A stretch of 6,445 nt of DNA from a virus. Lineage: Duplodnaviria > Heunggongvirae > Uroviricota > Caudoviricetes. Position numbers and translations under genes: made by a program. Positions 1 to 4,564 of the stretch are shown in pieces; the first letter of the stretch is position 1; every line of letters starts with the position of its first letter. The notes beneath the pieces were generated by a model. It was not told the origin of the DNA, ran no database searches, and saw only the letters and a list, made by a program, of their open reading frames with translations. The DNA lies in IMG/VR virus record IMGVR_UViG_2778261514_000007, positions 1-6,445 of that record; one strand, written 5' to 3'.

Positions 1-64
1 TTTAACGTCCCCAGACCGCTAACGACGCATGTGCCATACGCCGTGTTACAACCAACCTTTCGTT

Positions 65-81
65 AACAACAGTCTGTTGTT
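65..81. promoter_or_regulatory. 17-bp perfect palindrome aacaacag-t-ctgttgtt (8-1-8), just downstream of the putative leftward promoter; candidate operator or 5' RNA hairpin
   Basis: Seen directly: positions 65-72 are the exact reverse complement of 74-81. Function is inferred from position only. Confidence 0.3.
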
Positions 82-91
82 TGTTCAGATA

Positions 92-120
92 ATGATGCTA
101 CTAAAAGTAGCAAAAATCAA
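92..120 (-). promoter_or_regulatory. PL/OL-like leftward promoter-operator module
   Basis: Minus-strand reading ttgatttttgctacttttagtagcatcat matches the module upstream of the cro-like gene (2485-2513, ttgcaatttgctattttaagtagcatcat) at 24 of 29 positions. It contains a -35-like TTGATT, a 17-nt spacer holding the dyad ctact-ttt-agtag (plus strand 98-110), and a weak -10-like CATCAT. An extra aagtag half-site lies at 128-133. Confidence 0.45.
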
Positions 121-350
121 CAACAAAAAGTAGAAGTGTGTATTTAATTTTTAGTTTTCTATATAACGTTATGAATTAAAAGGTTTTTCACAGATGGGGG
201 GATGTGGTGTAGTTACGTATAGAAAATATCGAGTGTCTTTTGTTTTGGTTTAATTATTAGGTTAATTAGATAGTAATAATTTTGGGGAAAATAGTGGGAA
301 CTATGGATACAACGGGTCAGGAACAGTGTTATTAAGCAGGCTACGAGTAT

Positions 351-372
351 AAAACCCGACCTGTTGGTCGGG
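351..372 (-). terminator. Rho-independent terminator downstream of the ParA-like gene
   Basis: 7-bp GC-rich stem cccgacc (355-361) / ggtcggg (366-372) with a 4-nt loop. On the minus strand the stem is followed by TTTT (complement of aaaa 351-354) then ATACT. It lies 37 nt past the minus-strand stop at 409-411. On the plus strand it is not followed by a T-tract, so it is unidirectional. Confidence 0.55.
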
Positions 373-408
373 CGAGAATTATGTTCGTTCTAAATCATGG
401 TTATTGTA

Positions 409-1494
409 TTACAGACACTTGACTACTGTTGAAACATCAGATTCTAGTGCTTCAATTTGTGCTCTATTAGCTTGGGTCGCCATACCATAGATAGTGTAAC
501 TCTTATGCTGCAGCCTACTTAAAGGGCATCCCTCATGGTTTATTATTGCTGCAAGAGTATTACCATCTTTGACATTTTGAACTCTCTCGAAAGTAGCCAC
601 ATTTGTGAACAGATGAGGATGTGTATTTAACAGGTCATCCGTGATTCTTTTGATCTCTTCTGCATGTGATTTGAATGCTTTTGCTGCATCACTTTCATTA
701 GTTCTTGAGCGGTTTTGTACGAAAAGGTGTAGTTCAGGTAGTTCGATAAGGTTTTGCTTTGCTTCTTTGTTGAAATCTAAGAACATTTCATCTTGTTCTG
801 ACTTGTCAATAGACACTCCATAAATAAGTTTAACAAGGTTTTTTATTCCGCGAATTGATGCAGCATCGGCAGTGCAAGGGATAATTATTCTATTTGCCGC
901 GACTACTCCCAATTCTGTGTAGCTGGCAAAACTTGGATTACAATCAATAAAAAATGTTTTTGCTCTGTCAGAAATGTTTTTATCGGCTTCAAAAGATGCT
1001 ATTAGATCTACCAGCAAAGATCGGCTTTTCTTCCATGCTTCTTTTACTGGGGATGAGCCAATGTGAGATATTAAGCGTGAACAGATATCAAGATCGACAT
1101 CACCAGGAAGAATATATAAGTTCTCTGGCATTTTTGCATTAACATCATGGGCTCGTACAAAGTAAGAAGATTCATTTCCTAAACGAGACAAAGGAGATTT
1201 GCTAAAACGCTCCTTGATATAACCTGCGATTGTAACATTTCTGTCTCGCAATTTATTTAGATTTTCTTCCCCGGTACCATTGCCACCAAGAATAATTTCT
1301 GAAACGTTTGATTGAGGGCATGAGTCAATAACCACAACATCTTGATCCGGATGAGATATAGCAAACTCAACGGCAAGATTATATGTAAGAAAAGTTTTTC
1401 CTACACCACCTTTGTTGTTCCATACTAAATATTTTGTATTGGTGGAAATCATATCTGCTACCCCATCTGTCGCTTCAGTACGTTCATTAATCAT
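409..1494 (-). CDS. ParA/MinD/Soj-family (deviant Walker A) ATPase, 361 aa, with a ~110-aa C-terminal extension of unknown function; no ParB partner
   Basis: ORF-track protein has NKGGVGKT at residues 27-34 (deviant Walker A with the signature lysine) and a ParA-like Walker B region FFIDCNPSFASYTELGVVAANRIIIPCTADAASIRG. ATG at 1494-1492 is preceded by AGGA with a 7-nt spacer on the minus strand. The gene is visibly AT-rich relative to the right half of the window (not computed). Confidence 0.85.
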   Translation of the reverse strand: MINERTEATDGVADMISTNTKYLVWNNKGGVGKTFLTYNLAVEFAISHPDQDVVVIDSCPQSNVSEIILGGNGTGEENLNKLRDRNVTIAGYIKERFSKSPLSRLGNESSYFVRAHDVNAKMPENLYILPGDVDLDICSRLISHIGSSPVKEAWKKSRSLLVDLIASFEADKNISDRAKTFFIDCNPSFASYTELGVVAANRIIIPCTADAASIRGIKNLVKLIYGVSIDKSEQDEMFLDFNKEAKQNLIELPELHLFVQNRSRTNESDAAKAFKSHAEEIKRITDDLLNTHPHLFTNVATFERVQNVKDGNTLAAIINHEGCPLSRLQHKSYTIYGMATQANRAQIEALESDVSTVVKCL

Positions 1495-1728
1495 TATCGT
1501 ATCCTGTTGTATAGAATTGTCTATTATTTATGTTTTATTTTGGTTTTTTTTGTGTTAGTAACGCACCCAAAGATAACATATGGTCTTTATCTTTTCTTAC
1601 TTAGGGTAACAGCTCAGTGTTAATCCATTTTTATGGACCAATGTGCCAAATAAAATTTGTATAAAGATTTTCTATCCTTATCTTTTATCATCTGTGCTCG
1701 TTTGCTTTAACGATTGCTAGATGCCTAA

Positions 1729-2469
1729 TTAAAGTCGATTATATTTAATCGACTCATGAATCAGTGCCTTACCCATAACATAAAGCTGATCTTGCGACTT
1801 CTCATCAATGTACCATTTCTCATAGGCGGGGTTATCCGAAAGAACAGCTAGTTTGTTGCCTTGCATTTGTAGACGTTTAACATGGAAAGTCTTACCGTAA
1901 ACGAAAGAGTAAACTCCATCAGTCTGGAAGTGGCGAACGGAAATGTCGACAAACAATCGATCCCCGGAAACAAGAGTTGGGGACATACTATCTCCATTTA
2001 CCGTCATAACTTTTATATCATTCTGAGAACGGTTTCCGAAAAGAGAACGGGCATGTTCAGTTGTGAACTCAATGGCGTAGAGCACATCAACATAGTCTGA
2101 AAGCATATAGGTCCCAGGTCCTGCGCTAACGCTAAGATCCAAAACTTCTATCCTGTATACATCGGGCTTTGTTGGATTGGGGATGCTTGCCATTTCCTTA
2201 CATTCCTCTCTATCTCCAACACCATATTCTAGATATGAAGCTGATACTCCAAGAGCCAACGCAAGTTTACTCATGACAGAGACACGTGGCTTCGCTGCGC
2301 CGATTGTGTATCGACGAGCCATTTCATATGTAACGCCCACAAGACTTTTGAGTTGAGTGACAGAGATTCCTTTGATTGTCATCAATTCGTTTAGTCTCTT
2401 GGCGAAATCTGGATACTTCTGTTCTTCTACCATAGGTAGAAGATTACTCACATCGCACGCGCTAGTCAT
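1729..2469 (-). CDS. cI-like prophage repressor: N-terminal HTH (XRE-type) plus C-terminal S24 LexA-like autopeptidase domain
   Basis: N-terminal HTH-like segment FAKRLNELMTIKGISVTQLKSLVGVTYEMARRY. C-terminal S24 hallmarks: Ser in NGDSMSP, Lys in HVKRL, and a possible Ala-Gly cleavage site in VSAGPG. The ORF-track start at 2490 is a TTG; the first ATG is at 2469-2467 with no Shine-Dalgarno, consistent with a leaderless PRM-type transcript as for lambda cI. Start is therefore 2469 or 2490. Confidence 0.85.
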   Translation of the reverse strand: MTSACDVSNLLPMVEEQKYPDFAKRLNELMTIKGISVTQLKSLVGVTYEMARRYTIGAAKPRVSVMSKLALALGVSASYLEYGVGDREECKEMASIPNPTKPDVYRIEVLDLSVSAGPGTYMLSDYVDVLYAIEFTTEHARSLFGNRSQNDIKVMTVNGDSMSPTLVSGDRLFVDISVRHFQTDGVYSFVYGKTFHVKRLQMQGNKLAVLSDNPAYEKWYIDEKSQDQLYVMGKALIHESIKYNRL

Positions 2470-2539
2470 TTCTATTTTAAGTAGTTGCAATTTGCTATTT
2501 TAAGTAGCATCATCCCTCTGAATTTCAGAGGAGAAAGGT
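2470..2539. promoter_or_regulatory. Divergent promoter/operator region (PRM-like leftward, PR-like rightward) between repressor and cro-like gene
   Basis: Exact 13-bp direct repeat ctattttaagtag at 2472-2484 and 2495-2507, each an imperfect dyad (ctaYt-NNN-agtag). -35-like TTGCAA at 2485-2490, 17-nt spacer, -10-like CATCAT at 2508-2513. On the minus strand a TAAAAT hexamer sits 4 nt upstream of the repressor ATG. A 17-bp palindrome (2515-2531) overlaps the cro Shine-Dalgarno. Confidence 0.55.
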
Positions 2540-2779
2540 ATGTCATCTCAAAACTACACAGAGAAAGCAGTAAAGGCTGCGGGAAAATCTTTATCTGAAG
2601 TAGCCCGTCGCTTTGGTTTTAAGTCCACTCAATCCGTCGCCAATTGGGTAATTAACAATCAAGTCCCGTCAGAACGGGTTTTACAACTTTGTGAGTTGGG
2701 AAACTGGTCCGTGACCCCTCATGAACTGCGTCCTGATATTTACCCCAATCCAAATGATGGATTACCTGAGTGCTATTAA
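2540..2779 (+). CDS. Cro-like small HTH regulator (YdaS/Cro family), 79 aa
   Basis: Strong RBS gaggag (2528-2533) 6 nt upstream of ATG 2540. The motif VPSERVLQLCELGNWSVTPHELRPDIY matches my recollection of the YdaS/Cro-family signature (..VP.ERV...E..TG..RHELRPD..). Divergent from the repressor, in the classic cro position. Confidence 0.8.
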   Translation: MSSQNYTEKAVKAAGKSLSEVARRFGFKSTQSVANWVINNQVPSERVLQLCELGNWSVTPHELRPDIYPNPNDGLPECY

Positions 2780-3416
2780 AAAGTTAGCGGTTCAACTGCG
2801 TAAACGTAACCACAGAAACGAGGAATTAACCGTGGGTAAAGAACCTGAATGGAAAGTTGATAAGCAACCAGCATGGCTGGTGGCAGCAATACGAAGAACG
2901 ATTGCTGATTTACCTCATGGCTATGAGGAAGCAGCGGAAATTCTTGGTTTGTATAAATCTGATGATATCACCCCAGCGAAAGATCAATTGCATAACAGAC
3001 TGCGTAGCGGTGGGGATCAAATTTTTCCACTTGAGTGGGCCATGGTTTTACAGGATGCCAGTGGTACCAGGCATGTAACGGATGCGATAGCGCGTCGTAG
3101 TAATGGGGTGTTTGTGCCGCTGGTGGACATTGATGACATTGACAATGGTGACATTAATCAGCGGCTGATGGAGTCAATAGAATGGATTGGCAAGCATTCC
3201 CAGTACTTACGCAAGGCAACTGCTGATGGAGTTATTGACCAGGCTGAGCGTGAGCAAATCGAAGAGAACAGCTACCAAGTAATGGCGAAGTGGCAGGAGC
3301 ATTTAACACTGTTATTTCGTGTTTTTTGTGCGCCGGAAAAGAGTAACGCCCGCGAGTGTGCAGCTCCGGGCGTCGTGGCGTCGATTGCTTCTGGTTGTGG
3401 AGAAACTAACGCATGA
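2754..3416 (+). CDS. CII-like / YdaT-family lysis-lysogeny regulator (family assignment tentative)
   Basis: Open frame 2721-3416, immediately after cro as in Rac-type immunity regions; family assigned by position and general resemblance only. Start is ambiguous: ATG 2721 (ORF track), ATG-ATG 2754/2757 (both overlap the cro 3' end, no clear SD), or GTG 2832, which has a good SD (gagga, 7-nt spacer). The stop TGA 3414-3416 overlaps the next ATG (ATGA). Confidence 0.6.
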   Translation: MMDYLSAIKKLAVQLRKRNHRNEELTVGKEPEWKVDKQPAWLVAAIRRTIADLPHGYEEAAEILGLYKSDDITPAKDQLHNRLRSGGDQIFPLEWAMVLQDASGTRHVTDAIARRSNGVFVPLVDIDDIDNGDINQRLMESIEWIGKHSQYLRKATADGVIDQAEREQIEENSYQVMAKWQEHLTLLFRVFCAPEKSNARECAAPGVVASIASGCGETNA

Positions 3417-4564
3417 ACAGTTTAACGGCAAATAACCGTTTGTCGCAACAGCTGGTGGTCAGCGTCGCTGAACACCTGTTGTTACGGCATGAATGCAGAT
3501 TACCAAATCACCTGGCTGTAAGTAACCACAGAGAACTTTACCTGACTGTGGGGGGCGAGTTGTGCAGGAACTTAACCGCTGGTTTCGTGACGGAAGAGGG
3601 CTTTATGTCCATGTTATTCGTTGGGAGCCAGAAACACAGCGCGTTATCTATCTTCGCAAAGACTACCCGCATGAGTGCTTTAGTCCTTTGTGGAAATTCA
3701 GGCGTGATTTTGTTGAGTGTGAAGGACCACCAGCATATTGATTCTGCAATTCCGGGACGTTACACTGTTCCGGCACCTTATAAAGCGGGTGCCGGGCGTG
3801 GAAACCCGAAATTCAATATAGAGCACAACCGCGCTCATGCGGTTTTTTCGTGTCATGAGCATCGTTACGCCCAAATTATGGTGGGGCGTGCAGGGCCAAC
3901 TTCGGTTGGGCCGGGTTCTATGTTGACCGGTATTTCCACCCCTGTACGTCTCACCACCTATATGGTCGTGGAAAGCCTTGGTGGTGAGTTCATTGAATTC
4001 AACATAGGGGCTGTCACCATGACTACTCTCCCAACCCAATCTCACCCTGAAATCACGATTATCAATGGTCGCGTTGTCACCACATCTCTTGCAGTAGCTA
4101 ATTACTTTACTAAACGGCATGAGCGGGTTTTAGATAGAATTAGAAACCTCGAATGTTCCGCTGAATTTACTGAACACAATTTTGTGTTAAGTGAATACAC
4201 CGACGCATCAGGCCGCAAACTCCCTTGTTACCAAATCACCCGCGACGGTTTTGCGTTTCTTGCTATGGGTTTCACGGGTAAACGTGCTGCCCGGTTCAAA
4301 GAGGCATACATCAATGCCTTTAACCAGATGGAAAAACTGCTTTCAAAGCCATCCACGCTGAGCGATGCCGCAGATAACGCCAGCGTGCTTTACTCCCACC
4401 TGTCGGTAATCCACAAGGTCTGGCTGCAGCAGCTTTATCCCATGTTGGCAAAAGCCGAATCCCCGCTGGCTGTAAGTCTGTATGACCGCATCAACGACGC
4501 GGCGCTACTGGCCAGTCTCATAAATTTGTCGCTGAACCCTTCAGAGGTAAGGGGGCGCAAATGA
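3413..4564 (+). CDS. Rha-family (pRha domain) phage regulatory protein with an unusual ~200-aa N-terminal region; possibly tandem pRha-like modules
   Basis: Residues ~203-300 (MTTLPTQSHPEITIINGRVVTTSLAVANYFTKRHERVLDRIRNL...ITRDGFAFLAMGF...) match the pRha domain as I recall it. The start at 3413 has an ATGA overlap with the upstream gene and a GGAG 10 nt upstream. The N-terminal part carries a weaker echo of the same motifs (VAEHLLLRHE vs VANYFTKRHE; VTEEGFMSMLFVG vs ITRDGFAFLAMGF). An internal ATG at 4019, preceded by GGGG, could start a canonical ~181-aa Rha. Confidence 0.65.
   Translation: MNSLTANNRLSQQLVVSVAEHLLLRHECRLPNHLAVSNHRELYLTVGGELCRNLTAGFVTEEGFMSMLFVGSQKHSALSIFAKTTRMSALVLCGNSGVILLSVKDHQHIDSAIPGRYTVPAPYKAGAGRGNPKFNIEHNRAHAVFSCHEHRYAQIMVGRAGPTSVGPGSMLTGISTPVRLTTYMVVESLGGEFIEFNIGAVTMTTLPTQSHPEITIINGRVVTTSLAVANYFTKRHERVLDRIRNLECSAEFTEHNFVLSEYTDASGRKLPCYQITRDGFAFLAMGFTGKRAARFKEAYINAFNQMEKLLSKPSTLSDAADNASVLYSHLSVIHKVWLQQLYPMLAKAESPLAVSLYDRINDAALLASLINLSLNPSEVRGRK

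Follow-up and report, generated by a model that had tools for sequence, protein, structure and literature searches.

The repressor-proximal slot and its ATPase gene

The DNA examined here comprises the first 6,445 nucleotides (nt) of the IMG/VR virus record IMGVR_UViG_2778261514_000007 (Caudoviricetes), and this whole stretch is referred to as the window. The gene under study is the minus-strand open reading frame (ORF) at 409..1494, whose 1086 nt encode a 361-residue orphan ATPase of the ParA/MinD class (RefSeq WP_000606712.1, 'ParA family protein'). A preliminary description of this DNA had placed a 361-residue ORF in the interval 351-1728 and proposed it as an anti-phage gene; the ORF is confirmed at 409..1494, and the interval also spans a terminator and the spacer up to the neighbouring repressor.

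The ATPase gene lies downstream of and co-oriented with a cI-like repressor containing HTH_3 (helix-turn-helix) and Peptidase_S24 domains (1729..2433, minus strand; the longest ORF reaches 2490, with the RefSeq start at the ATG at 2433), the gap between the two genes being 234 nt. A cro-like regulator with a YdaS family helix-turn-helix, identified from the ORF list, profile matches and an annotated copy, is divergent from the repressor (2540..2779, plus strand), followed on the plus strand by cII-like, Rha/Ash and DnaD-like replication genes. A 47-nt inverted repeat with 79% complementarity pairs 92-138 with 2467-2513, and both arms carry operator-like palindromes (TGCTACTAAAAGTAGCA / TGCTATTTTAAGTAGCA), the pattern giving 8 matches against 1.27 expected by chance. 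The arm at 92..138 marks an OL-like (left operator) region at the left end of the immunity region, while that at 2467..2513 marks an OR-like (right operator) region between the repressor and the cro-like gene, neither being assigned to a strand. Flanking by OL and OR is typical of lambdoid phages, with lambda rexAB lying between cI and OL. Because the OL/OR-like inverted repeat flanks the region, the ATPase gene is placed between cI and OL as rexAB is in lambda, in agreement with the rexAB-equivalent slot proposed earlier. Its position between the repressor and OL/pL (left promoter), in the orientation of the repressor, is that of an immunity-region moron.

The boundaries of the gene are sharply defined. 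An AT-rich spacer (1531..1728, minus strand) extends from the repressor stop towards the ATPase gene, with a folding z-score of -2.5 and no hairpin followed by a U-run, and the terminator scan detected no terminator anywhere in the 234-nt gap. Adjacent to the gene is a conserved upstream block (1495..1530, minus strand) containing TAGACA, an AGGA Shine-Dalgarno sequence (1502-1505) and leading into the ATG, which moves with the gene in an alignment of 16 alleles located behind different repressors. On the other side stands an intrinsic terminator (345..373, minus strand), consisting of the hairpin GCCCGACC-AACA-GGTCGGGT and a T-tract; the hairpin, at 373..354 just past the stop, is the sole terminator-like site near the gene on that strand. 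A hairpin occurs just 3' of the stop in all alleles compared, and three of its seven predicted pairs show compensatory double changes. The GC fraction is 0.377 in the gene and 0.303 in the spacer, against 0.48-0.52 in the cII-like, Rha and replication genes. The orientation and gap, the gene's own terminator, the terminator-free gap and the AT-richness had all been claimed in the preliminary description, and each withstood this analysis.

Similarity between alleles begins ~35 nt 5' of the ATG and stops at the terminator hairpin, with unrelated flanks on both sides, so the mobile unit corresponds to the ribosome-binding block, the gene and the terminator. Judged by its sequence, the unit is a classic moron, self-contained by virtue of its own terminator, its deviant GC content and its presence or absence among related prophages. 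Since the spacer is free of terminators, read-through from the repressor promoter into the ATPase gene appears possible, and in the lysogen the ATPase gene is most probably co-transcribed with the repressor or transcribed in parallel with it.

The upstream block also contains a promoter-like match, TAGACA-16-TACGAT (1495-1530, minus strand). Across alleles, TAGACA is followed after a spacer of 16-19 nt by GATAAT or TACGAT overlapping the Shine-Dalgarno sequence and the ATG, an arrangement that might be the moron's own promoter; transcripts from such a promoter would begin within codons 1-5. Separately, otherwise identical copies differ in an A-tract at ~1538-1548 by a 10-nt deletion of CAAAAAAAAC, ~45 nt 5' of the ATG, giving spacers of 225 or 234-235 nt.

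Motifs, active site and predicted fold of the ATPase

The protein carries the deviant Walker A motif N27-KGGVGKT34 (1393..1416, minus strand), with the signature lysines Lys28 and Lys33; K28, G30 and K33 are conserved in 218-219 of the 219 aligned family members. The Walker B core, I183-D184-C185-N186 (943..954, minus strand), lies within FFIDCNPS at residues 181-188 and was aligned to 3pg5, 8ray and the delta protein, with D184 and N186 invariant in the same family alignment. A metal or Fe-S site made by the conserved cysteines was considered; a cysteine following the Walker B aspartate is common in ordinary ParAs. The translation thus reproduces both the NKGGVGKT at residues 27-34 and the ParA-type Walker B region reported initially, and K28, K33, T34 and D184 together supply the xKGGxxK[ST] signature and the Walker B of SIMIBI-class proteins. 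Profile hidden Markov model searches, suggested at the outset as a check, matched Pfam AAA_31 (3e-16) and CbiA (1.5e-8), and PHROG 164, 'ParA-like partition protein', matched at 2e-46. NCBIfam matches to ParA, MinD and BcsQ all remained sub-threshold.

The most distinctive feature of the active site is switch I (Walker A'), D57-S58-C59 (1318..1326, minus strand; Cys59 codon 1318-1320), as located from alignments. The canonical form of this motif is DxDPQ, in which the second aspartate is catalytic; its mutation has served to trap Soj, MinD and Get3 as ATP dimers, the corresponding positions being Soj D40/D44, MinD D40 and Get3 D57. In the window motif, D57-S-C59-P-Q, C59 aligns on the catalytic aspartate of 3pg5 (DCDPQ), of Get3 and of a ParA-like protein with DLDSQ. 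The DxD pattern of ParA/MinD ATPases is therefore kept at D57, and its second position is occupied by C59, which is invariant in 219/219 aligned family members down to ~30% identity. Because C59 replaces the catalytic aspartate, we infer that hydrolysis is slow or altered. The substitution is not remarked upon in the paper on the related Salmonella protein GiPD474 (PMC12724215), which is discussed in the next section.

An AlphaFold2 model built from 36 homologues was confident, with a predicted local distance difference test score (pLDDT) of 87.4 and a predicted template modelling score (pTM) of 0.88. The nearest folds to this model were DNA-segregating ParAs, McdA and Soj, and the predicted structure adopts the three-dimensional ParA/Soj fold. 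Pfam models end near residue 230 of the protein. Walker A' and Walker B stand 127 residues apart in the window protein, against ~85 in 8ray, so that at least 40 residues ahead of position 275 are insertions. With 245 residues aligned, the C-terminal third must therefore join the fold alignment, as the insertions use up earlier residues. A strand-helix-strand-helix succession is predicted at 254-360, together with the motifs NRSR and VKDGNT; from their topology, these appear to be the usual C-terminal elements of ParA/Soj proteins.

The predicted structure bears directly on the C-terminal ~110-residue tail, which the preliminary description had found to lack any recognisable motif and had proposed as a novel effector or sensor. 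The first statement is fair as a description of the sequence, but the structure prediction gives no separate domain, and the proposed effector or sensor tail is not supported, the C-terminal third belonging to the ParA fold in the AlphaFold2 model. According to the model, the tail is no added effector or sensor domain, the extra length of the protein being accounted for by a variable acidic N-terminal tail and internal insertions, and the window protein is one complete ParA/Soj fold without an effector domain. Bacterial tyrosine (BY) kinases are likewise AAA_31/MinD-like; the window protein showed neither Wzc or CapB as its closest fold nor a C-terminal tyrosine cluster.

Codons 1-14 (window 1452-1494) are acidic and poorly conserved, with a length of 11-16 codons across alleles that is always in frame. 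Residues 2-14 are just 9-64% identical between alleles, and Met15 is conserved across all enterobacterial alleles. The AlphaFold2 confidence is low over the first 14 residues, which may form a variable N-terminal tail or mark an alternative start. A true start at Met15, leaving residues 1-14 untranslated, was considered and rejected, since both the upstream ATG and its AGGA are conserved and since the segment, which comes in five lengths, is in every case a multiple of three and free of stop codons.

Orthology with gipd474 and carriage in E. coli

Bosma, Noireaux and Bowden (Appl Environ Microbiol, November 2025; PMC12724215) described gipd474 (STM474_RS13505), which replaces remAIN as a single gene in Gifsy-1 of Salmonella Typhimurium 4/74 and Gifsy-3 of 14028s. 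The gene is 1086 bp long, encodes an AAA_31/ParA-like protein with GGVGKT at residues 29-34 and a C-terminal part called 'unknown domain', and exceeds 500 transcripts per million (TPM) in growing (exponential-phase) lysogens. Phage FO1 regains its plating when gipd474 is deleted from its native lysogen. With the gene expressed from a low-copy plasmid, in either LT2 or E. coli K-12, plating of FO1, Alf5 (by ~5.5 logs) and T4 (by 5 logs) falls, and T7, SP6, LPST153, Jbel, VpaE1 and S16 are unaffected. The resistance is phage-specific, conferred by a single gene and probably post-adsorption, and the homologues form Salmonella/Escherichia, Klebsiella/Enterobacter and Pantoea/Yersinia clades, always near cII, cro and a repressor (PMC12724215). 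The published composition of these clades agrees with the homologue list obtained here.

The window gene is linked to gipd474 through an allele shared by loci L114-L118, which have the same gene and a short upstream repressor in common. Both lambda-Red homology arms given for the gipd474 deletion in Table S2 of that study have exact matches in these loci, one at codons 2-14 and the other across the final 13 codons, and 43-48% of the 13-kb locus L117 aligns with Gifsy-1 and Gifsy-2 at ~97.6% identity. The L114-L118 protein is 93% identical to that of the window over 361/361 residues, rising to 95% from residue 15 on, and the E. coli and S. Typhimurium proteins share one 90%-identity cluster. 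At the thresholds that the GiPD474 paper itself sets for homologues, at least 70% identity and at least 70% coverage, the window protein is thus a GiPD474 homologue by way of this allele, which is itself tied to gipd474 by arms, length, motif and context. The window protein also has the 361 residues, the GGVGKT at 29-34 and the predicted AAA_31/ParA-like fold of GiPD474, and its gene stands directly 3' of the repressor, near cro and cII, as a single immunity-region gene without a partner. The two prophages differ in that Gifsy phages have a short, antirepressor-controlled repressor, whereas the window prophage is lambdoid with an S24 cI-like repressor.

On this evidence, the minus-strand gene at 409..1494 is taken, with a probability of roughly 0.78, to be the E. 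coli orthologue of gipd474, forming a compact, partner-free moron between the cI-like repressor and OL. As far as its sequence can tell, it is probably also a functional defence gene of the GiPD474 type. The core of the preliminary inference, that an orphan ParA-class ATPase here provides a single-gene anti-phage function rather than partition, is thereby upheld through the orthologue (PMC12724215). The accompanying statement that no defence system built on a lone ParA-like ATPase was known is outdated, GiPD474 (November 2025) and RemAIN (2024) having been published, and the function is already known, as published in 2025. The gene matters because a close orthologue has been published as a single-gene defence active against T4 even in E. 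coli K-12.

Prophages matching the first 2540 bases of the window at no less than 99.8% identity occur in 71 of 5426 complete E. coli genomes (~1.3%). Across these 71 genomes the ORF is intact and at least 99.6% identical, and 70 of the 71 copies are chromosomal. The carriers include O157 and O145 Shiga-toxin strains, one copy lying in a Stx1a (Stx1-converting) prophage integrated beside mlrA in an O157 strain. Such carriage, Shiga-toxin strains included, bears on the choice of phages for therapy and biocontrol.

Comparison of the slot across related prophages, also suggested in the preliminary description, found it variable rather than conserved. All 71 E. coli genomes with a repressor allele of at least 99% identity carry this ATPase gene. 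Among 133 genomes with a 90-95% identical repressor allele, 109 hold a different ParA-like gene in the slot, WP_000167381.1. Its 358-residue product is 24% identical to the window protein, carries the canonical DLDSQ motif and shows similarity to 3pg5 (E 1e-21), an uncharacterised protein. Two more prophages, one from the 90-95% repressor group and one with an 80% identical repressor, have small unrelated ORFs in the slot. An example of the alternative gene is found in E. coli APEC O18 (L101:3753-4829, NZ_CP006830.1), where the repressor is 92% identical to that of the window. WP_000167381.1 matches the PADLOC candidate PDC-M28B across the P-loop only.

Other occupants of comparable positions differ from the window gene in composition or mechanism. 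Lambda rexAB, HK022 nun, 933W stk and BTP1 bstA are repressor-downstream accessory genes, expressed in the lysogen, that exclude or abort other phages. The position of bstA is documented in PMC8585504. The proteins of rexAB, nun, stk and bstA are unrelated to that of the window in sequence and mechanism, and none is a ParA-class ATPase. A further parallel is RemAIN of Gifsy-1 in S. Typhimurium 14028s, which a 2026 Nature paper presents as an anti-phage system made up of the ATPase RemA, an immunity protein (RemI) and a HEPN anticodon nuclease (RemN), and which is credited to Sargen and Helaine 2024 in PMC13043305 and PMC9879122. RemAIN occupies the same repressor-proximal slot, RemA is an orphan ParA-like ATPase without ParB, and the system is expressed in the lysogen, with an anti-phage and prophage-competition function. 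Unlike the window gene, RemAIN consists of three genes, the 279-residue RemA working with RemI and RemN. No ORF of at least 40 residues that could be a RemI or RemN counterpart is present between the terminator and OL, or on the gene's strand in the spacer between cI and the ATPase gene. The remAIN and gipd474 regions have no homology according to PMC12724215. In a 2023 paper on Gifsy-1 of 14028s, STM14_3218-3220, the genes since named RemAIN, belong to the immunity region, the first encoding a ParA-like ATPase; their expression resembles that of the repressor, and RtcR activation requires them.

Compared with the canonical ATPases ParA, Soj, McdA and delta (pSM19035), the window protein lacks a ParB or McdB partner and a centromere. 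It is ~100 residues longer than canonical partition ATPases, owing to its N-terminal tail and insertions, has Cys in place of the catalytic Asp, and would function in immunity rather than segregation. The 'putative ParA' of Pseudomonas phage phi297 (HQ711984) is 38% identical, of the same length class and likewise directly 3' of and co-oriented with the repressor, but it is a distant member without an assigned function; in the phi297 paper of 2012, the absence of parB was remarked upon and a partition role was guessed (PMC3564109).

Family contexts, mode of action and alternative roles

The best 120 matches to the window protein, at 54-93% identity, come from Enterobacterales, Pasteurellaceae, Campylobacter, Acinetobacter, Azospirillum, Gallionella and cable bacteria. 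A GTDB scan yielded 418 species, including Bacteroidota, Planctomycetota, Verrucomicrobiota, Spirochaetota, Firmicutes and some archaea; this distribution beyond Enterobacteriaceae was found here and is not in the GiPD474 paper (PMC12724215). The family is nevertheless small, a search of 1.84 billion representatives giving 124 clusters (50% identity) at E <= 1e-30. Alleles with 86-95% protein identity (window versus L114, L139, L130 and L099) are only 44-50% identical at third codon positions, which indicates extreme purifying selection: synonymous sites are saturated and the protein is nearly frozen, with the nonsynonymous rate (dN) far below the synonymous rate (dS).

The genomic contexts of the family are diverse. 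Of the 39 IMG/VR loci at or above 79% identity, ~37 have a co-oriented repressor as the upstream gene; at least seven kinds of repressor occur, either S24 cI-like or short HTH_3/Phage_CI_repr proteins. Homologues are repressor-adjacent also in Klebsiella phage ST11-VIM1phi8.2 (83%), phi297 (38%) and Salmonella phage S.Inf 5-2 (30%). Other homologues occur in an integrative island with ParE and RhuM and, next to HicAB, at a site in a prophage late region. An IS1595-family element of Azospirillum carries a 58-59% identical homologue as cargo (L007:8593-11477; L173:6597-12842), together with a DUF6471 protein and a 142-143-residue protein with a weak HARE-HTH match. This element is inserted inside a type I restriction-modification (R-M) operon in A. 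thiophilum, and in Azospirillum sp. BE72 the homologue is bracketed by two IS1595 copies and adjoins Cas9-Cas1-Cas2 and an MmeI-like enzyme. A 35% homologue is carried by more than 100 non-mobilizable plasmids, most of them from Escherichia, Klebsiella and Salmonella, among them P1-like IncY phage-plasmids such as pSJ_98. In this plasmid (E. coli, NZ_CP011063.1; L097, L179) it follows a 281-residue helix-turn-helix gene, precedes a DUF3892 gene and lies near the immI/repL and icd/antirepressor region, with a canonical ParA-ParB-RepA cluster 8 kb away. Neither the phi297 nor the pSJ_98 homologue gave PADLOC matches. Lone copies between housekeeping genes are found in Aggregatibacter, Moraxella, Electrothrix and many metagenome-assembled genomes (MAGs).

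No universal partner gene was found when 612 neighbouring ORFs from 85 loci were clustered, the largest family being the IS1595 transposase, present at 7 loci. Pfam and PADLOC scans of 150 immediate neighbours gave heterogeneous results, mostly housekeeping among the top 25 families listed. A ParB domain was detected in no ORF of the window, in none of the 32 kb of an annotated prophage copy, and beside none of the homologues at the 85 loci, in line with the early observation that no parB lies nearby. Centromere-like repeats had also been reported as absent, and the only tandem repeat is indeed a weak, AT-rich array of three 11-nt units lying in the spacer. The ParABS hallmarks are thus missing, with no adjacent ParB, ParG or ParR, no centromere array other than the 11-nt x3 repeat and the OL/OR operators, and an integrated prophage rather than a replicon, 70 of the 71 E. 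coli copies being chromosomal. Two of the conditions named at the outset as counting against a defence role, homologues consistently beside parB and a conserved slot, were looked for and neither was found, which speaks for that role.

Several features offer handles on the mechanism of a bare ParA fold: the invariant cysteine, the predicted lack of a separate C-terminal domain, the extreme purifying selection, the reach of the family beyond Enterobacteriaceae and the second, unrelated ParA-like gene in the slot of sister prophages. As a tentative proposal, a GiPD474-type protein would form the ATP-sandwich dimer typical of deviant-Walker-A ATPases, and the Asp-to-Cys change would slow hydrolysis and make this dimer long-lived. 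Acting once the phage has adsorbed, the dimer would bind either DNA or a conserved protein of phage or host and so halt the infection cycle, while degrading nothing itself. A conserved target is favoured because the family is extremely conserved. It is conceivable, at similarly modest odds, that this mechanism is new for immunity, a lone ParA fold serving as a slow or non-hydrolysing ATP switch that occupies DNA or a conserved machine. At least three unrelated ParA-class ATPases recur in prophage immunity regions, namely GiPD474, RemA and the 3pg5-like protein of the APEC O18 type. Given this recurrence in the slot and the ultra-conservation of the GiPD474 family across phyla, archaea included, ParA-like ATPases may have been overlooked as a general class of sensors or executors in immunity.

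A number of points weigh against the assignment as a GiPD474-type defence gene. The link to STM474_RS13505 runs through two 39-40-nt primer arms, gene length, motif position and context, and the phenotype comes from the Salmonella protein only, from which the E. coli allele differs at ~7% of residues. The window repressor is of the S24 cI-like type and not the short Gifsy-type helix-turn-helix repressor. Many distant homologues stand among housekeeping genes, leaving room for a non-defence primary role outside the enterobacterial clade, and a protein so nearly frozen is unusual for a prophage moron or defence gene. With regard to the mode of action, the protein has no effector domain. PADLOC-DB v2.0 (2023) gave no system match for the window protein, only Drt5 at E 0.007, which is noise; this negative was expected and is uninformative because GiPD474 was published after that release.

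The annotation as a partition protein raises the alternative that the gene encodes a genuine partition ATPase for an extrachromosomal phage form, with an unrecognised ParB and centromere or, in a variant, with the repressor and its operators as adaptor. The closest folds, DNA-segregating ParAs, McdA and Soj, agree with this, as do the PHROGs label 'ParA-like partition protein' and the similar speculation in the older phi297 paper (PMC3564109). It is nevertheless highly improbable, since no ParB domain occurs in the window, in the 32 kb of prophage or beside homologues, centromere-like repeats are absent and the element is chromosomally integrated. P1-like plasmids hold the homologue besides a canonical ParA-ParB pair 8 kb off, and a plasmid-borne copy of the orthologue gives defence in phage-free K-12 (PMC12724215). 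The repressor as ParB-like adaptor was rejected in its own right, as near-identical ATPases stand behind unrelated repressors, 27-100% identical or of another type, excluding a co-evolving repressor partner.

A primary role in modulating the host or prophage, as Soj, MipZ or FleN do, for example through control of replication initiation, division or induction, with resistance as a side effect, is unlikely, though somewhat less so than partition. The extreme purifying selection, with 50-60% identity between phyla, suggests a conserved cellular target, and the lone copies amid housekeeping genes and the absent effector domain point the same way; RemAIN in the neighbouring slot reduces the yield of its own prophages. 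Against this, deletion of gipd474 in the native lysogen restored FO1 plating, and an effect so phage-specific that the related VpaE1, Jbel and S16 escape it fits immunity better than general physiology (PMC12724215). The remaining contexts are defence-like or mobile as well, comprising the type I R-M operon, Cas9 with MmeI, and HicAB or ParE. It is also improbable, to a slightly greater degree, that the E. coli allele is an orthologue yet inactive or of a different phage range, so that the published phenotype would not transfer. Defence specificity often shifts with few substitutions, and the 7% protein divergence clusters in the first 14 residues and at a few positions on the surface. In the 71 complete E. 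coli genomes, however, the ORF is intact with no less than 99.6% identity, all invariant family residues are retained, dN is far below the saturated dS, and GiPD474 is active in E. coli K-12 (PMC12724215). The reading of the gene as a GiPD474-type defence moron is accordingly preferred.

Two further observations concern the rest of the window. Rfam models of isrK (3773-3849, 61.6 bits) and the C4 antisense RNA (3874-3961, 82.4 bits) match on the plus strand, both above the gathering score and both inside the 383-residue Ash and Rha ORF at 3413-4564, whose 5' part is probably non-coding; the region 3773-3961 looks like a P1 immI-type or Gifsy-type isrK/c4-antirepressor module. At the left end (window 1-65), only the first 55-65 bases match sequenced lambdoid and Stx2 phages (mEp460, cdtI, Stx2a/Stx2c) at 95-100%, which marks a recombination joint just left of OL.

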